Virus genome (UHGV): UHGV-0060588 | DNA: 16,053 nt | Strand: one strand, 5' to 3' | Source: a virus | Translations under genes and position numbers: made by a program | Shown here: piece after piece, positions 1 to 13,328 of the stretch | How the letters are laid out: each line of letters opens with the position of its first letter | How positions within the stretch are numbered: the stretch's first letter is position 1 | The notes under the pieces: model-generated | The model's database searches: none | Seen by the model: the letters and a program-made list of their open reading frames with translations, nothing else | What the model was told of the DNA's origin: nothing

Positions 1-12
1 TAAGATTCATGT
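1..12 (-). CDS. 5' end (first 4 codons) of a leftward gene that runs off the window
   Basis: Minus-strand ATG at 12..10 preceded by AAAGGGGAAAC (GGGGA Shine-Dalgarno, 4-nt spacer). Only the start is visible, so the product is unknown. Confidence 0.25.
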
Positions 13-33
13 TTCCCCTTTCTCGATAAGTAA

Positions 34-56
34 AGCCCCGCCTTAAAGCGGGGCGC
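34..56. terminator. GC-rich stem-loop GCCCCGC-N6-GCGGGGC, possible terminator or 5'-UTR structure
   Basis: 7-bp perfect stem seen directly. On the minus strand it is followed by TTTACTTATC and then the SD/ATG of the leftward gene; there is no clean U-tract on either strand. Confidence 0.35.
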
Positions 57-319
57 TAGTCCTTATCATTTAAACATAGAAACGGCGTAATCTCAGTAAA
101 CCAGTTACTTTTTACACAAGCAATAGAGTATGGCCCTTCCGAACGCGTCAGCGTAACTACACTCAGGACTTACGTCCAGCTCCGTTACCTGCCGCGCCGC
201 GGTCGCTTGCTCATACTTCACAAGCTCAGGTGGAGCTTATCATATTTTTAGTGAAAAGTCAAATATTCGAATAGTTTATTCCAACATTTACAATTGAGTG
301 GAATAACTGGAATACGTAA

Positions 320-348
320 ATAAATAGTTTGCGCGCACCAACATAATA
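320..348 (+). promoter_or_regulatory. sigma70-type promoter P1 (TTGCGC-N17-TACTAT) for the clamp-like gene
   Basis: -35 TTGCGC at 320-325, 17-nt spacer, -10 TACTAT at 343-348, in an AT-rich leader 37 nt upstream of the ATG. It shares the core AATAGGGTACTATTCA with two minus-strand promoters elsewhere in the window. Confidence 0.5.
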
Positions 349-384
349 GGGTACTATTCAGTTAACTTAAACAGGAGATGAGAA

Positions 385-906
385 ATGGTTACTACAGTAA
401 TTACTTTCCCTGCGTATGTAGGGGCGAAAATATGCAGGGCTAAAAATGATGTTCGCTACTATTTGAACGCTTTTTACATAGACCCTGAAGGATTGATAGT
501 GTCTACGGACGGTCATAGATTGTTCTGCGACAATGTGAAGACCAACGTTGAGAAAGGGACTCTCATAGACATCAAAGGGAGAGAGCCTTCTAAATTTAAC
601 TACGCGGAGGTAAACCACGACAACGGCAGTGTATCTTTCTATGACGATAATCGTGCGCTTATATGTACACTTCCGGTAGATGTTGTAGAAGGAAACTTTC
701 CTGACTGGAGACGCGTGGCGCACATCACACCGGGTGTTGTCGATAGTATAGGGTTCACCCTGCGTTATTTGGCAGACGCGTACAAGATTTCTAAGGCATA
801 CAAAAATGAAATTGCTCGTTTTGATTTCCAGGACCAAACCAGAGGATGCAAAATACAATTTTCAAACACGGCCTTTATGGTGTTAATGCCTGCGCGATTT
901 AAATAA
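385..906 (+). CDS. truncated DNA polymerase III beta sliding-clamp (DnaN) homolog, 173 aa
   Basis: AGGAG SD 8 nt before the ATG and a terminator immediately after the stop. The protein carries DVRYYLN and TDGHRL, then VEGNFPDWRRV, then IGFTLRYL...AFMVLMPARFK, which line up with E. coli DnaN segments QDVRYYLNG...ATDGHRLAV, VDGRFPDYRRV and IGFNVSYVL...AAYVVMPMRL (DnaN recalled from memory). The overlapping minus ORF 367..858 has no such support. Confidence 0.7.
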   Translation: MVTTVITFPAYVGAKICRAKNDVRYYLNAFYIDPEGLIVSTDGHRLFCDNVKTNVEKGTLIDIKGREPSKFNYAEVNHDNGSVSFYDDNRALICTLPVDVVEGNFPDWRRVAHITPGVVDSIGFTLRYLADAYKISKAYKNEIARFDFQDQTRGCKIQFSNTAFMVLMPARFK

Positions 907-912
907 AACTAA

Positions 913-933
913 GGCCCCATTATGGGGCCTTTT
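913..933. terminator. rho-independent terminator (GGCCCCA-TTA-TGGGGCC followed by TTTT), probably bidirectional
   Basis: Perfect 7-bp GC stem with 3-nt loop and a T-run on the plus strand directly after the clamp-like gene stop. On the minus strand it follows the stop of the Ig-like ORF (945) with a U-rich tail (TTAGTTTTA). Confidence 0.7.
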
Positions 934-944
934 ATCATTCTGGC

Positions 945-1280
945 TTAGTAACCTTCGCCCGCCGCATTAACAGTCAGAGACAGAGCCTCTTCCGGGGCGT
1001 TCACCACTTCCTTCCCGTCTTTGTACCAGGTCAGTACATACGGCGCTTTACCCGCCTTAACCTCGACAGTGATAGTCGCACTTCCGTCCGCCAGTTCAGC
1101 GCCCTGCGGTTGTACAGAGAAATACACATCTCCAGCGTCAGCCAGATACGGAACCTCGTAAAGCATACCCGCCGCAGGGAGTGCGATACCGGTTTTATCT
1201 GCAAACGGCATATCATCTACCGGTGTACCTAGTACACTTTCGTCTTCAATAAACACCACGTTCTCACCAGAGCCAGACAC
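945..1280 (-). CDS. Ig-like (Big-type) domain protein, 111 aa as drawn; true start uncertain
   Basis: Sequence has an Ig-like beta-sandwich flavour (ATITVEVKAGKAPYVLTWYKDGKEV). The track start is a GTG with no SD, and the frame stays open 28 codons further upstream without any ATG/GTG/TTG. Confidence 0.5.
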   Translation of the reverse strand: MSGSGENVVFIEDESVLGTPVDDMPFADKTGIALPAAGMLYEVPYLADAGDVYFSVQPQGAELADGSATITVEVKAGKAPYVLTWYKDGKEVVNAPEEALSLTVNAAGEGY

Positions 1281-1342
1281 ACGGGCGTACTGGACTACGC
1301 GGCGCGCAGGTACATCAGTTACTTTAAAAAAAAGCCCATAAA

Positions 1343-1963
1343 CTAAACCTCTTTCATTGAGTTAATCTTACGTAAGACGCCTTCGAAAAGGCGTGGGTCT
1401 ATGCTATCGCAAAGACCTTTGTATTCATATGCTAATTCAATTTTTCTATGAAACCATGCTACGTGTGCCTCTTGAGCGGTTTCGTAAGCGCCTATTTGTT
1501 CAGATACGCCATCCACGGATACTTGAGCGATGAATCTTTTCTTTTGTTTATGGAAATGTACGCCGAGTGGGTGTTCGCCTCGAAGAGCGTGGGCTGTTAG
1601 GAAAGTATTGAGGGATTTAGGGATGAAAACACAGTTAGAAGCATCGTAAACCTTATTTCCCGGGTTAAGTAAATCCTTATCTATCTGCCACCCAGGTACA
1701 TAAAAATCATCAAACCAGACCTTGAAATTACTGAACACCAACCAATCGTCCGACACGCGGCAACCTATATAAGTTCTGTTTCTTTGCTGCCATTTCTTGT
1801 CGTAGCACCTCTTTAACATGTTCTTCCATACGGCGTAGGACGCTATATGCACCCCTCCGCAACTTATTGGTGAAACATCGTTAATACCCACACCAAAAAC
1901 AATTCCCATATTAAACCCTATAAGAAAACCCCATGAAGATTGGTCGATGCCAGAGATAGGCAT
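1343..1963 (-). CDS. HNH-like homing endonuclease with C-terminal AP2-type DNA-binding domain, 206 aa
   Basis: N-terminal signature ASYAVWKNMLKRCYD...IDKDLLNPGNKVYDASNCVF typical of phage HNH-family endonucleases, and C-terminal GVHFHKQKKRFIAQVSVDGVSEQIGAYETAQEAHVAW matching the AP2 pattern. It sits between head morphogenesis and Ig-like ORFs as a free-standing insertion. Confidence 0.65.
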   Translation of the reverse strand: MPISGIDQSSWGFLIGFNMGIVFGVGINDVSPISCGGVHIASYAVWKNMLKRCYDKKWQQRNRTYIGCRVSDDWLVFSNFKVWFDDFYVPGWQIDKDLLNPGNKVYDASNCVFIPKSLNTFLTAHALRGEHPLGVHFHKQKKRFIAQVSVDGVSEQIGAYETAQEAHVAWFHRKIELAYEYKGLCDSIDPRLFEGVLRKINSMKEV

Positions 1964-1977
1964 ACCTTCATGGGGTT
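1927..1977 (-). promoter_or_regulatory. 12-bp perfect inverted repeat (AACCCCATGAAG-N27-CTTCATGGGGTT) enclosing the HNH start codon
   Basis: Plus-strand 1927-1938 and 1966-1977 are exact reverse complements. In the minus-strand mRNA the ATG at 1963..1961 lies at the 5' edge of the loop. Confidence 0.4.
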
Positions 1978-2033
1978 ATATTCTTTCTCTATTTTTAGTA
2001 GTTCACCGACCAAAGCTAGCTACTAGATATACT

Positions 2034-3110
2034 TTATACCGACCTAAGATATTCAGCAACCCTGTTATCTAACGCCGCCATCTCCTTCAAGGTTAAAGGT
2101 CTACCAAAAGCGTCGACGGATATTACCCGGAATTCCTCTGGGGATATCCCACTATTCCTGAATATAGCACCGCGGGTAGGTCCGAGTGCTTCATCCACGA
2201 ACCATGCCGGTTGCTGTTTCAGGAACTCGTAATAGGTGGTGTCTGCGCTTACCTGCATACCGCCGTCCGCACCCTTAGCCGCGCGTTTTGCACCTTTATC
2301 TAGGAAGTCGAACTCCGAACTGATTACCGGTGCAGTGGTACTTCGACAATTCGGATGGGCGGGGGGCATCGGCCCCTTACCAATTTCCCACGTCATTCCG
2401 TCTCTGGCTCTGCAAATCGTACTGGTACGGCTGTCCAGTGTTGATACCCACTCGTACTTCTCGATGATGTCGTCGTTCTGGCGGTACGTCTCGTTGCGGG
2501 CTTCGTTGGATACGTGGGAAAGCGCGGTGCGAATTACAGTAGTTGCGTTTCGCTCAGAGATGTCAGCCAGCCCACCCGCGCCTACGACATTCTTAACAAT
2601 CTGCCGTGTGGTCTGGCCTTGTACGAAACCCATCTTAACGCCAGTTACCAGGCGCGCTACTTCTGTTTCGCCCCAACCATTCATCAGCTTAGTGAAGTCG
2701 ACAGGCTTGTCGCTTAATGAGAGCGGCTGAAACTCGGCAGCGGCCCACACCTGTTCAGCGGTAGGCGTAACAAATTCCGCGTCTACGTTGGCGGTCAGTG
2801 TCTTTACGTTCCACTCCGCTTCATATGCTGCCAGTTCCTTAAGGTCTTCTGTCAGCTTCGTCTGCCAGCCGCCTGTAAGTCCTGTTAATGCTTCTTCGAG
2901 GTCGCGTAACAATTTATTCAGCCGCGCGGTGCTCCGCCCGTCGTCGCCGAATAACAGCACCTGCCGTTTGATTTCGTCCCGCATCTCCTGAAGGAACGGT
3001 GCGAGGTCTTTCACTTCACCGGATGCGGTGCGTTGCAGCCATATCTGGTGGCTGATTAGAGATGTAAGTAAGCTCATAGCTAAACCCTGTGGTGCTAAAG
3101 TTAATAGCAT
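2034..3110 (-). CDS. phage head morphogenesis protein (SPP1 gp7 / Mu F-like minor head protein), 358 aa
   Basis: C-terminal signature WVSTLDSRTSTICRARDGMTWEIGKGPMPPAHPNCRST (W-x-TLD-x-RT...H-P-N-C-R) characteristic of this family, and position directly downstream of the portal gene. Confidence 0.8.
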   Translation of the reverse strand: MLLTLAPQGLAMSLLTSLISHQIWLQRTASGEVKDLAPFLQEMRDEIKRQVLLFGDDGRSTARLNKLLRDLEEALTGLTGGWQTKLTEDLKELAAYEAEWNVKTLTANVDAEFVTPTAEQVWAAAEFQPLSLSDKPVDFTKLMNGWGETEVARLVTGVKMGFVQGQTTRQIVKNVVGAGGLADISERNATTVIRTALSHVSNEARNETYRQNDDIIEKYEWVSTLDSRTSTICRARDGMTWEIGKGPMPPAHPNCRSTTAPVISSEFDFLDKGAKRAAKGADGGMQVSADTTYYEFLKQQPAWFVDEALGPTRGAIFRNSGISPEEFRVISVDAFGRPLTLKEMAALDNRVAEYLRSV

Positions 3111-3146
3111 ACTATAAGAAAGCCCCTTTCGGGGCTATATGTGAAC

Positions 3147-4631
3147 TTACTGCTGAGCGGTGTCTTGTTGTTGCTGCGCCGACTGCGGAATCTCTCCTGC
3201 TACCTGAGTAACCGCGCCTAACGGCAGCGGCGCGTCCTCAATAGCGTTCTGGATGTCTTCGTCCGTCCAGTCGGTTACGCCTGCCTTACGCAATGCCGAG
3301 TAATAGGCAGTAGCCGGTAACAGGCCCGCGTTAATGTCCGCCATCCACTGCGCTCGGTCCTGCGCGGTCATCGGTTGCAGGAAGAACTCCATGTTTAGCT
3401 TGAACTCAATTTCTGTGTCATCACGCAACCCAAGCATGGCAGCCGCCCAGCGCAACGCATCGGTATACGCCATGCTTACGTTACACGCGATTGTCGCCAT
3501 AACGGACGTATCGGCGCTGCGTTGTAGACGGGCTGATTCCGCAGTGATTTGCTGCGTCGGGGTGATAAGCTGCGCACCAATCCGGATGGCCTGATTCTCT
3601 TTATCCAGCATGTTCTGCTTGGCCAGGTTATTCTCTCCGGCCTGGACCAGAAACGCATTGCCGCCGTAGCCGATGTTATGACCTGAACGCGACCCCATGC
3701 GCACACCGTGTGGGTTAGCCTCTTTCCACTGTTCCATGCTCATGTTCTCACCCGGGGCGATGAACAGAGTTGGCTGACCTACAACGAAGCTGGATTCCTC
3801 ATTGTCTGCGCTGTTGCGGAAATGCCCGATATTAAGCTCGGCCAACGGCAGCAAAGGCGCATCGTCAATGGTCGCGTCGTTATTGCTTGCGCCAATAAAC
3901 GTGAACGGGATTTTGCCGCGCAACTGTTCGCCAAGTTCCGGGAATATTTCGATTACTTCATCCTGAGCGCCACCTTCGGCATCGAAGCGGTAAATGCGCT
4001 GGCGGTAGCGCCCATCAATCAGGTCAAGGACGCGGTATTGCTCGCCGAACTTTGTTTCGAACTCTGCACCGGGTTCAGAGTATTCCCATACTTCGCGCAA
4101 CACGACCATTGTCACGCGGTTAACTGAACCAACGCGGGTCAGTCTCCAGTTGATGATGTTCTCCGCGGTGTAGAATGCGATGACCGGGTTTAATAATCCT
4201 GCGTTCTGTTCGGCTGCCGTTGCTGCGGCGGTCTCTGGTGCATCAACCAGCAACCCGCCACGACCTACCGAGTCAATTTCCATCAAAGTATCCTGCGCGT
4301 GCTGCCATAGCCCGACACCTGAACCGTCAGCGTTGCGTAACAGGTACTCAAGTTCAGGCGGGATAATCTGCTCAGGGTCTTTACGCATAACACTGCCGAC
4401 CATCCCCGCCAGGGTACGTTTAGTGAAGTTGTAGCAGATAGCGCCGTTCTCGTATTCTTCCTGGCGCTGTGCCGCATAGGTCGGGTCAGGCTCGTTCTTC
4501 CCGACATTGCGCAGGTAACGGATGAGGTCGCCTTCCAGCGCGTGGCGCACCTTCTGCCATTTATTGAAGTGATGCAGCCATTCCCGGTGTTTTGTCTTAA
4601 CACCCTGATTCTGACCGTTCATAGTTAACAT
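3147..4631 (-). CDS. portal protein, 494 aa
   Basis: Size and position between the large terminase and head morphogenesis genes. GAGGA SD before the ATG at 4631, 12 nt after the TerL stop. No specific motif recalled. Confidence 0.7.
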   Translation of the reverse strand: MLTMNGQNQGVKTKHREWLHHFNKWQKVRHALEGDLIRYLRNVGKNEPDPTYAAQRQEEYENGAICYNFTKRTLAGMVGSVMRKDPEQIIPPELEYLLRNADGSGVGLWQHAQDTLMEIDSVGRGGLLVDAPETAAATAAEQNAGLLNPVIAFYTAENIINWRLTRVGSVNRVTMVVLREVWEYSEPGAEFETKFGEQYRVLDLIDGRYRQRIYRFDAEGGAQDEVIEIFPELGEQLRGKIPFTFIGASNNDATIDDAPLLPLAELNIGHFRNSADNEESSFVVGQPTLFIAPGENMSMEQWKEANPHGVRMGSRSGHNIGYGGNAFLVQAGENNLAKQNMLDKENQAIRIGAQLITPTQQITAESARLQRSADTSVMATIACNVSMAYTDALRWAAAMLGLRDDTEIEFKLNMEFFLQPMTAQDRAQWMADINAGLLPATAYYSALRKAGVTDWTDEDIQNAIEDAPLPLGAVTQVAGEIPQSAQQQQDTAQQ

Positions 4632-4643
4632 TGAATAATCCTC

Positions 4644-5894
4644 TTAAAGTGCGAAAGTCACCGGGATGTTGATTACTGGCTTAACCACCGGCATCTCATA
4701 AACTACAGGATAGCCGAGAGCATCCGCCATATGGTCAATGACGCCGTCTTTAGCAGGCTCTCCGTTATCATCATATGCCTGCTGCTCCAGTGTCTTCGCT
4801 ATCTCAGGGCATAAGTGGTCGTTAACCCACAGCTTACCTTTTTCCAGCGCGGTATTCACGGCTAAAACACGGTCTTTAACCGGTGGGTTGGCGGATTTAG
4901 CGCGAACATCAAAACCGGCCTGCTGTAGTAAGGCGATATCGGAGATTGACGCCGAGTTGGTTTTGCGGTTCTTGCCGCTGGCGTCCGGGTAAACGACGAT
5001 GCGGTGGCCTTGCGACTTCCACTTCTCGGTAATCACACGCACGGTATCTGGCGTATCGAACAGGCCCTTCAGTTCTGCTACCGCGTGCCAGCCGTCTTTA
5101 CGTTGCACATACACGGCGCTGGCGTTCTTCGTAACGTTGAAGTCCTGCCCGATGTACAGCGTGTCGCCCGGTTGGATTGTCTCTTTGCTGCGATGCTTAC
5201 GTCGGTCGTAGGCGTAGTAGACGCTGCCGGATGTCAGGTTAACGAACTCCCCATTCAGATACGCGTTAATCAGTTGCGCTGGGTAAGTCTCGGTCAGCGA
5301 GCTAATGTAGTCAGGCGGCAGGAATCGCGCGTTCTCGTGGGTGGAAGCCTGCACCATTGAGTAACTCGGTGTCGGGTTCTCTTTGAACTTGGCGTAGACG
5401 AACTTGAACCCTTCCGGCGTCGTGGTGACGGAGATGTGGTTGGTTACACCAGGGATAACCAGACGCATACGGGCGACGATTTTGTTCCATGCCAGTTCAG
5501 CTTTTTCTCGGCTCAGTACGTCCAGTTCATCCACGACCGCGGCGGCGATTTTGAAACCCACAATCGAACCGGGGTTATCCATAGAACGACAGATAACCGT
5601 TCCGAGCACCGTCTTACCGCGAGTAACCACGACCTCTTTGTCTCCGGATTTAACCAGCACATCAAGGCCGAGCAGGTTAGCCGCTTCCTCGAATGTCGGG
5701 TAGAAGATGTCACGGATGGCGGGATAGGTAGGGCCGAAGTAGCCCAGGCGTGTACCAGGGTGCTTGAGCATAAACGTAAGCAGGTCAAGGCAGCCGACAA
5801 ACGTCTTGCCACTACCGAAGCCGCCTACGTAGGCCTTGTATTTGTTGTCACAATTCAGGAACAGTGCCTGCGGCGCGGATAGCTGAATACTCAT
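4644..5894 (-). CDS. terminase large subunit (TerL), 416 aa
   Basis: N-terminal ATPase with Walker A GGFGSGKT and Walker B VVDELD, and a C-terminal nuclease-like region with conserved acidic residues (IGQDFN, YPDASG). The start overlaps the TerS stop (ATGA). Confidence 0.85.
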   Translation of the reverse strand: MSIQLSAPQALFLNCDNKYKAYVGGFGSGKTFVGCLDLLTFMLKHPGTRLGYFGPTYPAIRDIFYPTFEEAANLLGLDVLVKSGDKEVVVTRGKTVLGTVICRSMDNPGSIVGFKIAAAVVDELDVLSREKAELAWNKIVARMRLVIPGVTNHISVTTTPEGFKFVYAKFKENPTPSYSMVQASTHENARFLPPDYISSLTETYPAQLINAYLNGEFVNLTSGSVYYAYDRRKHRSKETIQPGDTLYIGQDFNVTKNASAVYVQRKDGWHAVAELKGLFDTPDTVRVITEKWKSQGHRIVVYPDASGKNRKTNSASISDIALLQQAGFDVRAKSANPPVKDRVLAVNTALEKGKLWVNDHLCPEIAKTLEQQAYDDNGEPAKDGVIDHMADALGYPVVYEMPVVKPVINIPVTFAL

Positions 5895-6436
5895 TCCTCT
5901 ACCTCACCCATGTTCGTTGTTACAATTTTACCTACAGGCTCCGCAACACTGAAAATAATCTCAGTCGGTGCCGTTTCTTCGGCGGATTCAACTGGTTTCT
6001 CTTTGCCAAGGCCAAGTTTCGCAGCGGCAAACGTAGCAGAGATACCTGCAGCCCCTGTCTCAGTGAAGTATGCCTCTTCCAATGCCTGTGCTGTCTCATA
6101 GGCTTCGGCAAATGCGGGAATCTCACGCAGCCACAGCTTAATAATCGGGATAGTGACGCCGATGTGTAGGGCGAAGCGGGCCAGTGACGGTGGCTTATCC
6201 TGAATCAGCGGGCGTTCGTCACCCTTAGACGTGGGCGCAAGTTCCCATGACGTGCGGTCGAAGAACTCGATTAACGCGTCGCAATAGTCCGGGTCCCACA
6301 ACGCGGCGGAATTACGGGACGATTGATAAAGGCTCTGTTTACCGCGCGGTCGTTTACGGCGACGGTTTGCGCTAACAGCTTCTTCATGTGCAGCTTGCAC
6401 CACCTCTGGCGATGGCTGCTTGAGTTTCAGCTTCAT
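5891..6436 (-). CDS. putative terminase small subunit (TerS), about 181 aa from ATG 6436
   Basis: Directly upstream of and translationally coupled to TerL. AAGGGGA SD 5 nt before ATG 6436 (the track ORF extends to 6475). Basic N-terminal segment followed by a helical segment, consistent with DNA binding; assignment is mainly positional. Confidence 0.55.
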   Translation of the reverse strand: MKLKLKQPSPEVVQAAHEEAVSANRRRKRPRGKQSLYQSSRNSAALWDPDYCDALIEFFDRTSWELAPTSKGDERPLIQDKPPSLARFALHIGVTIPIIKLWLREIPAFAEAYETAQALEEAYFTETGAAGISATFAAAKLGLGKEKPVESAEETAPTEIIFSVAEPVGKIVTTNMGEVEE

Positions 6437-6529
6437 AGAATCCCCTTGCATATGCGTCTGACCATCAGAGCGCACCAGACGCGCCCTACGCGTCTAAAGG
6501 GATTATATAAGGGGATTAGGCAGGATGTA

Positions 6530-6553
6530 CAGAAAAGCCCTCCGTAGAGGGCT
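6530..6553 (-). terminator. rho-independent terminator (AGCCCTC-CGTA-GAGGGCT then UUUUCU on the minus strand)
   Basis: 7-bp stem with 4-nt loop, 10 nt downstream of the last gene of the accessory operon (stop 6564) and upstream of TerS. Confidence 0.5.
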
Positions 6554-6563
6554 TGTGGTGTGA

Positions 6564-6719
6564 CTATTCGGTTATATCGCCGCCGTCTACCAGTGCTAAC
6601 GGGATTCTCACTTCACCGTTGAATGTTTCGGCGTACCAGAACTTCTCACATTGCGTTACGTTGAAAACATCAAGTTCTGATGTAGCGCCTGTCTTCCAGT
6701 ACACCGTTAACTTTTTCAT
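6564..6719 (-). CDS. hypothetical protein, 51 aa (below the ORF-track cutoff)
   Basis: ATG at 6719 preceded by GAGGAGG with a 7-nt spacer and overlapping the stop of the upstream gene (ATGA). Found by manual translation. Confidence 0.45.
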   Translation of the reverse strand: MKKLTVYWKTGATSELDVFNVTQCEKFWYAETFNGEVRIPLALVDGGDITE

Positions 6720-6952
6720 ACATCACCCTCCTCTCGTGCGATACGTTGCTCTGTTTTAGTGATACCACGGCGCGTGAATAGCACCGGGCTTGTCTTAACG
6801 TGCGTCATGAGACGATTGTTATAAATTACGTGGCGCTCGCAGTTCACGTCTTTACTGTACTTCGCAATCGTCATTTCGTTGAGGCCAGTTTGTCGGCATG
6901 TCTCCGCCATCGTGCCGAATTCTTTAATCAGGTTAGGAATGCTGGTAATCAT
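6716..6952 (-). CDS. small putative helix-turn-helix DNA-binding protein, 78 aa from ATG 6952
   Basis: The track ORF starts at GTG 6976; ATG 6952 has a GAGGAA SD and overlaps the upstream stop (ATGA). The segment FGTMAETCRQTGLNEMTIAKY looks like an HTH. Confidence 0.5.
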   Translation of the reverse strand: MITSIPNLIKEFGTMAETCRQTGLNEMTIAKYSKDVNCERHVIYNNRLMTHVKTSPVLFTRRGITKTEQRIAREEGDV

Positions 6953-7119
6953 CCTAAGAAATTCCTCGTTGACCACATCGCATTCGGATATTTGTTATCC
7001 CGGTCCTGCACTACGGCAATCATGTTACCGCGTTGCACGAGGCAAAAGTGCCGCTGTTGCTCGCCGTTATAGCGCCGCCATATTGCTTCTTCGATTGCTG
7101 CGTTGATGTCACTGAACAT
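6949..7119 (-). CDS. hypothetical protein, 56 aa (below the ORF-track cutoff)
   Basis: ATG at 7119 sits 2 nt after the stop of the upstream gene and is preceded by GGGGTGA; its own stop overlaps the next start (ATGA). Manual translation. Confidence 0.4.
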   Translation of the reverse strand: MFSDINAAIEEAIWRRYNGEQQRHFCLVQRGNMIAVVQDRDNKYPNAMWSTRNFLG

Positions 7120-7121
7120 AA

Positions 7122-7304
7122 TCACCCCACTACCTCATCGCCAAGCCACGCCGTTTCTCGTATATCATCGACCACACAAGCGGCGTGCTCACGGCTAATT
7201 GCAAAAATGTAGAAGCTAAACTTCTTCCCGTCGGCGTCGATGTGGTTAACCGAGTAGGGTTTCCACAGGACGCCATCAATTACTACTGGCTTAGGCGACT
7301 CCAT
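7122..7304 (-). CDS. hypothetical protein, about 60 aa from ATG 7304 (track ORF 7122..7388 starts at GTG)
   Basis: Open frame in the coupled minus-strand operon. ATG 7304 with a GGTGAAG SD keeps the overlap with the upstream gene to 14 nt, whereas the GTG start would overlap by about 100 nt. Confidence 0.45.
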   Translation of the reverse strand: MESPKPVVIDGVLWKPYSVNHIDADGKKFSFYIFAISREHAACVVDDIRETAWLGDEVVG

Positions 7305-10715: not shown

Positions 10716-10918
10716 CACTCCACCCCTTCCAAATGTGTAACTGACCCACAGTTCGCGCACTCGACGTAATCAGGGAACTGGTCTTTGTATTTCTGTAACT
10801 CGGCTTCAACTTCCAACAGCTTGTGGTCAAGATTCTGGTAGTCCTCAAACTTAACCCACGCCCCGTGACGGTCCCCGAAATGGTTGTCAGACCCATACTT
10901 AGAGTATCTCTGTACCAT
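10715..10918 (-). CDS. hypothetical protein, 67 aa, paralog A of a tandem pair (begins MVQRY)
   Basis: AGGAG SD 8 nt before ATG 10918 (the track starts 2 codons earlier at GTG). Ends in a C-x2-C motif (ECANCGSVTHLEGVE). Confidence 0.5.
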   Translation of the reverse strand: MVQRYSKYGSDNHFGDRHGAWVKFEDYQNLDHKLLEVEAELQKYKDQFPDYVECANCGSVTHLEGVE

Positions 10919-11631: not shown

Positions 11632-11904
11632 TTATTCAACAGCGCCTGTTATTGCGATAAGCCCGGTGTTATCGCGGCGACGATACTTACGAATCACAGT
11701 TTTAAGTTCTTCATTACTACTCTGATGCCCGAACGTGATCGGCAGCTCTTCTCCTCCTGACATCCCGAACTCAGTGTCCGTCGGTTTGTCCCGCCACCCC
11801 TGAATAAACCCGAAACGGTCGCGAGTTATATACCGGTAGTTGTTAGGGAGGGGCAACTCCAGCCCCTCAAAATCAACGGTCACGGTGTAGCTGCTAAAAT
11901 TCAT
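11632..11904 (-). CDS. hypothetical protein, about 90 aa from ATG 11904
   Basis: Open frame in the coupled operon; the track begins at TTG 11910. No recognisable motif. Confidence 0.45.
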   Translation of the reverse strand: MNFSSYTVTVDFEGLELPLPNNYRYITRDRFGFIQGWRDKPTDTEFGMSGGEELPITFGHQSSNEELKTVIRKYRRRDNTGLIAITGAVE

Positions 11905-12043
11905 AGTCAATTACCCCGAACTCATTGATGATTTGAGCCTTGTAGAAGTTGCCGTTTGAGGCCAGGTGGTACGCCTGCGTCATAGTCATCTCACGATATG
12001 TTGCAGCGCTGTTTTCGAACTCCATAATCATCAAAGTAACCAT
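11894..12043 (-). CDS. hypothetical protein, 49 aa, first gene downstream of promoter P2 (below the ORF-track cutoff)
   Basis: ATG 12043 directly preceded by GAGAGGAGAGAGAAG (SD). Manual translation: MVTLMIMEFENSAATYREMTMTQAYHLASNGNFYKAQIINEFGVIDYEF. Confidence 0.4.
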   Translation of the reverse strand: MVTLMIMEFENSAATYREMTMTQAYHLASNGNFYKAQIINEFGVIDYEF

Positions 12044-12072: not shown

Positions 12073-12101
12073 ATAGTAACCTATTCTATCCTAGCGTGCA
12101 A
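12073..12101 (-). promoter_or_regulatory. sigma70-type promoter P2 (TTGCAC-N17-TACTAT)
   Basis: Minus-strand -35 TTGCAC (plus 12096-12101), 17-nt spacer, -10 TACTAT (plus 12073-12078). Shares AATAGGTTACTATTCA and the downstream AAACGAGA with P3. Confidence 0.55.
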
Positions 12102-12819: not shown

Positions 12820-13077
12820 TTATTCACGGCAACCTCCCTCAGAGTCGTCGGCACGAGCATCATGATTCGATGCCGTTCTGAATGTTACCGCTGGTGTGCC
12901 CAGGACATTCACGGTAAAGGCTTCACCATGTGATTGCTCTAAATCCCACTCATCACCTTCCTCGTCTAAAACGTAGAGACGACCGTCGTAGTGTACTTTC
13001 AACGAATACTCGTTGCCTTTTATAAACCAACCGCCCATTTCTGCTTTAGACTCAATACAAATTAATTCTTCCATCAC
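12820..13077 (-). CDS. hypothetical protein, 85 aa
   Basis: Track ORF; its start overlaps the stop of the upstream gene. No recognisable motif. Confidence 0.5.
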   Translation of the reverse strand: MMEELICIESKAEMGGWFIKGNEYSLKVHYDGRLYVLDEEGDEWDLEQSHGEAFTVNVLGTPAVTFRTASNHDARADDSEGGCRE

Positions 13078-13274
13078 TTCGCCCCTTTGAATTTAAAATT
13101 GTTGCCTATGAGCTTCATTTCATACTCTCGGTAATACGCCGTGGAACTTAACCCGTGCTCCCTGAGTAAGCTAACGACATAAGAACTTCGGTACACTGTC
13201 GATTTCTTTTCAATAATACCTAAGCTACCGTACATCGTTTTCACCAACTGACCCTTCCTAAACATAACCCTCAC
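13074..13274 (-). CDS. hypothetical protein, about 63-66 aa, first gene downstream of promoter P3
   Basis: Track ORF starts at GTG 13274; an in-frame ATG at 13265 follows GAGGG. Lys-rich. Confidence 0.45.
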   Translation of the reverse strand: MRVMFRKGQLVKTMYGSLGIIEKKSTVYRSSYVVSLLREHGLSSTAYYREYEMKLIGNNFKFKGAK

Positions 13275-13299: not shown

Positions 13300-13328
13300 A
13301 TAGTATCCTATTATGTTGGGGTGTGCAA
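13300..13328 (-). promoter_or_regulatory. sigma70-type promoter P3 (TTGCAC-N17-TACTAT)
   Basis: Minus-strand -35 TTGCAC (plus 13323-13328), 17-nt spacer, -10 TACTAT (plus 13300-13305). Near-identical core to P1 and P2. Confidence 0.55.

Follow-up and report, generated by a model that had tools for sequence, protein, structure and literature searches.

The 16,053-nucleotide stretch of viral genome UHGV-0060588 analysed here (the window) carries, at 385–906 on the plus strand (ATG at 385, TAA at 904–906), an open reading frame (ORF) whose 173-amino-acid (aa) product, as judged from sequence comparisons and a structural model, is a folded derivative of the bacterial beta sliding clamp, DnaN, that is maintained by selection and amounts to about 1.5 domains. 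As a tentative mechanism, which falls somewhat short of probable, we favour a soluble, non-ring pocket module that would bind the clamp-binding motifs of host proteins, with no loaded ring on DNA. The window comes from a Kagunavirus (Guernseyvirinae), an Escherichia coli siphophage; over its first 4 kb it shares 94% identity with phages fPoEco01 and fFiEco02, and matches were obtained to 308 phage records.

In a phmmer search against the PDB, residues 16–116 aligned with E. coli DnaN 144–252 and residues 117–171 with 312–365 (whole-sequence E value 4e-5), confirming the three blocks of DnaN similarity listed in an initial annotation of the window, whose quoted 173-aa product was likewise returned on translation. 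Scored singly, the protein gave 17.2 bits (E 0.006; gathering threshold 27 bits) against PF02767 (DNA_pol3_beta_2) and 20.3 bits against TIGR00663 (cutoff 137.65), the latter match covering model positions 146–247 only. Eight of nine longer family members tested scored 34–62 bits against PF02767, and further members carry precomputed PF02767 matches. These nine yielded no informative domain fusion, PF02767 being the only domain matched, and PF02768 (DNA_pol3_beta_3) was found neither in the 173-aa protein nor in the nine longer relatives. A profile built from 51 homologues (alignment A1) reached 109.6 bits on E. coli DnaN and returned 55 matches in the PDB, every one of them a beta clamp (best E 1e-30).

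Structure prediction of the protein alone, using alignment A1, afforded a compact and confident AlphaFold2 model (predicted local distance difference test 95.6, predicted template modelling score 0.91), for which a Foldseek search against the PDB retrieved beta clamps only, at probability 1.0. The model superposes on real clamps with 2.4 Å over 161 residues, and the predicted packing of domain II against the half domain III is therefore native-like. It consists of three beta-alpha-beta-beta-beta units, the repeat of the clamp fold. Units 1 and 2 (residues ~3–101) correspond to DnaN domain II, the helix of unit 2 being lost in this subfamily: no helix is modelled between strands 59–63 and 73–77, the place where distant, longer family members carry an insertion in alignment A1. 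Unit 3, with a helix at 126–138 and three strands, represents the second half of domain III and ends in MPxR as DnaN does. Residues 117–123 form a coil in the monomer model; the equivalent DnaN strand joins the missing sheet. Domain I and DnaN ~253–311 have no equivalent in the protein, the alignments together spanning DnaN ~138–253 and 313–366 only. The latter segment is the first half of domain III and holds the I272/L273 dimer interface and a loop contacted by delta (PMC11139829).

Compared with bacterial DnaN (Pfam DNA_pol3_beta, _2 and _3; TIGR00663), which has 366 aa, the phage protein thus has neither domain I nor the first half of domain III; the dimer interface is also missing, as is one channel helix, and for this reason the protein is unable to form the canonical head-to-tail dimeric ring. 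The initial annotation had reached the same count of about 1.5 domains and had denied it the role of a conventional three-domain protomer, and alignments, profile and model all agree with that description. Its charge is near neutral (isoelectric point 8.3; family median 7.7). A tblastn search with E. coli DnaN found no second clamp-like piece anywhere in the window, so the ORF is not a fragment of a full-length dnaN, a possibility that the initial annotation had itself raised.

By alignment and model, the partner pocket is intact and conserved, as had been supposed for the partner-binding cleft from the window alone. The pocket for clamp-binding motifs (subsites I and II), which belongs to the part of DnaN retained here, domain II with the adjoining half of domain III, has been defined by 18 listed residues (PMC11139829), 15 of which are identical in the phage protein (R24, L27, T41, G43, H44, R45, L46, P106, R110, V111, V166, M168, Y128, P169 and R171). 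The three substitutions are N320 to T, V344 to T and M364 to A, and V344 itself is variable among clamps (PMC11139829). In the 51-member alignment, mean conservation was 0.81 for pocket columns vs 0.42 elsewhere (Mann-Whitney p = 3e-7), and pocket residues occupied 12 of the 19 most conserved positions. The motifs TDGHR[LMI], [FY]PDWRR[VI] and MPxR were nearly universal in the 211 family proteins that were retrieved. The family-specific invariant residues W108 and K134 sit outside the listed pocket. Ratios of non-synonymous to synonymous substitution (dN/dS) of 0.10–0.15 at a dS of ~0.3, obtained against relatives that are 92–93% identical, indicate purifying selection.

A profile search run exhaustively over 1.84 billion representatives retrieved at least 279 proteins at E ≤ 1e-30, and the best 150 of these were all 141–265 aa long with a single contiguous match to the whole profile. 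By tblastn, the gene was located in 238 phage genomes, including those of Kagunavirus, Dhillonvirus, Skatevirus and relatives, Sodalis phage SO-1, and Proteus, Vibrio, Acinetobacter and Burkholderia phages, and many short viral proteins in BFVD match structurally (template modelling score up to 0.87). In a survey of lineages and neighbours over 80 IMG/VR loci and five reference loci (n = 85), clamp-like ORFs were almost all of 169–240 aa and fell into 32 lineages at 60% identity, and clustering of neighbours yielded mixed contexts with no single constant partner. One recurrent setting is an opposite-strand island within the head module, where the gene stands by itself in Kagunavirus, beside Nmad5 in Dhillonvirus, and together with a ParB-like protein in both Skatevirus and Klebsiella phage ZCKP8. 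Other contexts are early or replication regions beside genes for DUF5906 primase-helicase, DUF2800 nuclease and family-A polymerase in distant lineages, while one lineage occurs in temperate phages close to integrase and CI-like genes. The family is found both together with a phage family-A polymerase and in ZCKP8, which has the clamp gene and no polymerase-sized ORF, its inventory comprising primase, helicase, single-stranded DNA (ssDNA)-binding protein (SSB), ExoVIII and a DUF3987 protein; function is accordingly independent of a phage polymerase. No clamp loader gene was present in the relatives' genomes examined.

In the Dhillonvirus islands, the Nmad5-domain gene (E 7e-56) lies directly 5' of the short clamp, and in Skatevirus and ZCKP8 a ParB helix-turn-helix/KorB protein is encoded in the same operon as the clamp (neighbour loci L003 5147–5911, L008 5897–6706 and L010 21999–22850). 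For Dhillonvirus nmad5, a study that does not mention the clamp gene reports that it is non-essential, that it is toxic upon cloning and that it is linked to sensing by the Tmn defence system, which a K-to-E change in it escapes (PMC11846954). About half of the family extends by a tail of at least 10 residues beyond MPxR (e.g. P0043, P0044, P0045, P0052, P0059 and P0090), which the window protein does not have. Among the 105 tails of this kind, 44 have Ala-Ala as their terminus, reminiscent of an ssrA-like C-terminal degron, and PxW is present in 47 (e.g. ...VPGWVSDKPVAESVAA), where it could be a partner- or self-binding peptide.

As relatives are already annotated, the sequence itself is not new: the gene is not a newly noticed oddity but an annotated, widespread, uncharacterised and often mislabelled one. 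GenBank entries for orthologues carry the names "DNA polymerase III sliding clamp", "beta clamp domain-containing protein", "DNA polymerase III beta subunit" and "RusA-like Holliday junction resolvase". The last of these corresponds to the label of PHROG 3007, of which the 173-aa protein is a full-length member (E 3.6e-36), and pharokka-annotated relatives consequently bear the RusA-like name, which has been propagated into many such genomes. A RusA identity was rejected: a Pfam scan at E ≤ 1 gave DNA_pol3_beta_2 alone and no RusA (PF05866), and the neighbours in sequence and fold are clamps, so that the PHROG label appears to be wrong. One genome paper simply calls an orthologue a sliding clamp (PMC9825357). 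No functional study of short phage clamps came up in literature searches, and clamps go unmentioned in the 2017 paper on polyvalent proteins. The PADLOC-DB defence models gave zero matches for the 173-aa protein and three relatives, and Rfam returned only sub-threshold chance matches on window positions 1–1400.

Expression of the short clamp appears to be provided for by the unit itself. The initial annotation had assigned it its own promoter, Shine-Dalgarno sequence and terminator, and each of these stood: the Shine-Dalgarno sequence and the ORF ends could be read directly, the terminator was recovered by a scan, and the promoter is supported by recurrence and conservation (Table 1). The promoter matches the sigma-70 consensus at just 7 of 12 positions, which is why a generic promoter scan missed it. 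Its core ATAATAGGGTACTAT recurs four times in the window at up to three mismatches vs 0.34 expected, a number that 0 of 200 shuffles reached. The copy at 3101 (+), with three mismatches, was not counted as a promoter as it has no TTGCRC -35 element. The full elements of the three remaining window copies align as TTGCGC/TTGCAC-N17-TACTATTCA with similar leaders after each; promoter and leader together make up a recurring element, TTGCRC-N12-TAGGnTACTATTCA, that marks a single promoter class. The complete phage Ivi genome has the promoter pattern exactly four times vs 0.01 expected (69–99, 10817–10847, 20011–20041 and 43526–43556), the copies preceding two early-gene units (at gene 1 and at gene 76), the clamp gene and an opposite-strand superinfection-immunity/exonuclease island within the tail module. 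From these positions we infer that the TTGCRC-N17-TACTAT class represents the early promoters of the phage, presumably read by the host polymerase.

A view of the unit as moron-like and self-contained, also put forward initially, is supported by phage fBC-Eco01. This phage encodes a clamp protein that is 100% identical, but its gene sits between those for head morphogenesis and the portal; homology to the window runs from the -35 element to just past the terminator hairpin, and the flanks are unrelated. The terminator is kept in the relocated cassette, the changes falling in the loop and the loop-proximal stem pair. The slot that the unit occupies in the window (~10–940, between the genes for an Ig-like protein and a spanin) is filled in fBC-Eco01 (695–1137) by another opposite-strand cassette of two genes for hypothetical proteins of 114 and 33 aa, and seems to be a hotspot for exchangeable accessory cassettes. 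Because the clamp unit is relocated in fBC-Eco01 and its slot there is otherwise occupied, we regard it as a self-contained movable cassette; it shows the own promoter and terminator, the opposite orientation and the variable location among close relatives that are expected of a moron. The accompanying statement that it is the only plus-strand gene among minus-strand structural genes holds, as judged from annotated relatives; plus-strand early and replication genes are located at the far right of the window. Between 10 and 384, the window has no plus-strand ORF of at least 50 aa, and the Kagunavirus cassette contains no ParB or Nmad5 gene. Window positions 1–959 (cassette and left flank) are 97.5% identical to Ivi, compared with 86–89% for the adjacent structural genes (954–7297), and the five differences between the clamp coding sequences of window and Ivi are all synonymous, which suggests that the clamp segment was recently exchanged among Kagunaviruses.

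According to the mechanism that we tentatively favour, the short clamp would be synthesised early in infection from the promoter class common to the phage's early genes and would compete with the host clamp for the clamp-binding motifs of replication or repair proteins. Candidate ligands are the QLxLF-type motifs of DNA polymerase (Pol) III alpha, epsilon and delta, Pol II, IV and V, Hda, MutS and MutL, and others. Host proteins would as a net effect be diverted or silenced, the result being either inhibition or recruitment. The closest experimental analogy is monomeric beta, which binds partners, delta ~50-fold more tightly (7.5 vs 460 nM), and cannot tether Pol III for processive synthesis (PMC11139829). 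The replication proteins of Ivi showed no canonical clamp-binding motif, the three matches among Ivi proteins being implausible and all in structural proteins, so that host proteins would be the likeliest ligands. Such motifs were likewise not found in the ParB-like and Nmad5 neighbours of the other genera. The earlier suggestion of a clamp decoy or replisome hijacker, taken broadly as binding of clamp-binding motifs without a ring, is considered plausible. As a separate observation, Ivi genes 66 (exonuclease) and 73 (primase-helicase-like AAA ATPase; its orthologue starts at ~14219 (+) in the window and runs off the window end) share the acidic C-terminal peptide VTEEDLE, and the Ivi SSB has an acidic DDLEDDEEDE just upstream of a basic, Arg-rich C-terminus; by analogy with T7 replication proteins, these acidic tails look like a shared docking tail for a common partner.

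Several points weigh against competition by a free pocket module. Pocket residues are also the most conserved ones in ordinary DnaN, and their retention could partly reflect constraints of the fold. The secondary delta-contact loop is gone with the deleted half of domain III, and the promoter matches its consensus weakly. Co-transcription with Nmad5 in Dhillonvirus or with the ParB-like protein in Skatevirus hints at a DNA-centred role that a decoy leaves unexplained. Finally, a general motif competitor should also harm phages such as ZCKP8 that need host Pol III and beta, and this dependence favours a selective target or an adaptor role over indiscriminate competition.

An unlikely alternative is that the short clamp assembles into a ring or an arc and confers genuine processivity on the phage family-A polymerase or host Pol III. 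Four copies with three half-domain units each would add up to 12 units, as in a normal ring; alternatively, two half-domains would be joined into one pseudo-domain in a two-fold dimer, and coil residues 117–123 could complement a partner in such an assembly. The clamp fold with its native-like modelled geometry, the role presumed by existing GenBank annotations and the many carriers with a family-A polymerase, including distant lineages in which the gene lies near those for DUF5906, DUF2800 and PolA, would fit. A precedent may exist in E. coli beta*, reportedly a 26-kDa, ultraviolet-induced dnaN product of an internal start, comprising domains II–III and attributed to Skaliter, Paz-Elizur and Livneh (1996). 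Like beta*, the phage protein is N-terminally shortened; it begins close to the start of domain II and retains the pocket. However, beta* is said to retain the whole of domain III and to trimerise into a six-domain ring, whereas the phage protein is without the half-domain required for the beta* interface. The canonical head-to-tail interface has disappeared together with domain I and the I272/L273 region, one of three channel helices is lost in the subfamily, and the near-neutral protein does not offer a strongly basic DNA-binding face. A processivity factor is also difficult to reconcile with the absence of a phage clamp loader, with a family member in polymerase-less ZCKP8 and with phage polymerase termini that carry no clamp-binding motif. 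Moreover, a monomeric clamp gives no processivity (PMC11139829).

We consider it just as unlikely that the short clamp is an adaptor, the pocket capturing a host motif protein (e.g. the Pol III core, ligase, Pol I or delta) and a putative second surface tethering it to a phage protein or DNA, with recruitment to the phage replisome instead of inhibition as the outcome. This explanation accounts for pocket retention as well as for carriage of the gene by phages that rely on host Pol III, and it fits co-transcription with the putatively DNA-binding ParB-like protein in Skatevirus or Nmad5 in Dhillonvirus. The invariant W108 and K134 outside the listed pocket, or the conserved PxW tails of long-form members as a second interaction motif, could mark the additional contact. 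However, the Kagunavirus cassette contains neither neighbour gene, and its movement as a single gene suggests activity without a linked phage partner.

Binding of DNA ends or primer-template junctions, by which the pocket would hold ssDNA at primed sites and mark or protect phage DNA structures, is improbable. It is consistent with the 90–98% conservation of Y25 and Y26 (equivalent to Y153/Y154), and ssDNA occupies the same pocket in beta, whose monomeric form still binds DNA (PMC11139829). The affinity of beta for ssDNA is, however, weak and outcompeted by a polymerase peptide (PMC11139829), and the charge of the phage protein indicates no strongly basic surface. That the gene is a decaying fragment of captured dnaN or a mis-called, functionless ORF is hardly credible and was rejected, even though the sequence, scored singly, does not reach the Pfam and TIGRFAM thresholds, in view of a dN/dS of ~0.1 at dS ~0.3, a uniformly short architecture in all of the best 150 representative matches, the confident compact model, a conserved promoter, Shine-Dalgarno sequence and terminator of its own, and the lack of flanking dnaN remnants.

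Clamp-fold proteins that do not close a ring are known from the polymerase accessory proteins of herpesviruses (herpes simplex virus UL42, human cytomegalovirus UL44, Kaposi's sarcoma-associated herpesvirus PF-8 and Epstein-Barr virus BMRF1). In contrast to the near-neutral phage protein, for which no polymerase tail motif was found, these comprise two complete domains with a strongly basic face for DNA binding, and no sequence relationship between the two groups is detectable. The presumed target, the host hub of beta clamp and clients, would be the same as that of Gp168 of Staphylococcus phage Twort and MuC of phage Mu. MuC enlists beta through a clamp-binding motif (PMC12867686). Whereas Gp168 and MuC bind the clamp, the short clamp would instead imitate the client-binding site of the clamp.

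Table 1 Features of the short-clamp cassette and related promoters in the window.
Feature	Position	Strand	Basis
Coding sequence, 173-aa short beta-clamp homologue	385..906	+	Homology, model, dN/dS
Domain II equivalent (residues ~17–116 vs DnaN 145–252); motifs RYYLN, TDGHRL, FPDWRRV	433..732	+	Alignments, model
C-terminal half domain III equivalent (residues 117–173 vs DnaN 312–366); motifs IGFxxxY, MPxR	733..903	+	Alignments, model
Putative promoter TTGCGC-N17-TACTAT (-35, 329–334; -10, 352–357)	329..357	+	Repeated copies, conserved in relatives including relocated cassette
Shine-Dalgarno sequence AGGAG, 7 nt 5' of ATG	373..377	+	Read from sequence
Bidirectional intrinsic terminator hairpin, 9-bp stem, T-runs on both strands	911..931	both	Terminator scan
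Whole mobile cassette: promoter, leader, coding sequence, terminator	328..935	+	Homology limits vs fBC-Eco01
Paralogous putative promoter TTGCAC-N17-TACTAT ahead of small early ORF 11894–12043 (-)	12073..12101	-	Sequence match
Paralogous putative promoter TTGCAC-N17-TACTAT ahead of small early ORF 13074–13274 (-)	13300..13328	-	Sequence match

The surroundings of the cassette showed further features. A GC-rich hairpin with a T-rich tail is located at 35–54 (-), just upstream of the spanin start codon (8–10, -) and within a 375-nt non-coding stretch between the spanin and clamp genes; termination or attenuation before the lysis and scaffold genes is a possible role. On the other side, the gene for the Ig-like head-decoration or 'tail protein' has, within 1280–1345 (-), a run of eight T right after the ATG (ATGGGCTTTTTTTTAAAG, ~1323–1330), at which relatives read TTTTTC or TTTTTT. 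The resulting +2 shift leads to a stop after six codons, and the remaining ORF (945–1280), with only a GTG start, encodes 111 aa vs 152–153 aa in relatives. A homopolymer sequencing error, a real frameshift or slippage-dependent expression could each explain this run. An HNH endonuclease gene at 1343–1963 (-), between the Ig-like and head-morphogenesis genes, is present neither in Ivi, where the flanks are contiguous, nor in several other relatives, and looks like a homing-endonuclease insertion.

Bacterial replication and repair have the beta clamp, also an antibiotic target, as their central hub, and the family described here has reduced it to its client-binding pocket and spread it over hundreds of phage lineages. 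A broader and more doubtful proposal is that short clamps form a widespread, unrecognised class of host-takeover proteins, pocket mimics that titrate clamp-binding-motif proteins early in infection, with delta, Pol III and Hda as likely targets, and that might act as two-fold dimers in which half-domains complete a pseudo-domain, an arrangement not described for the clamp fold. Should clamp-binding motifs prove to be its ligands, the short clamp would act as a natural competitor or adaptor at the clamp hub and could serve as a tool for probing clamp-client traffic and as a template for inhibitors. It would also account for a gene that annotators routinely, and wrongly, call a processivity factor or a RusA resolvase, including in phages that are candidates for therapeutic use.

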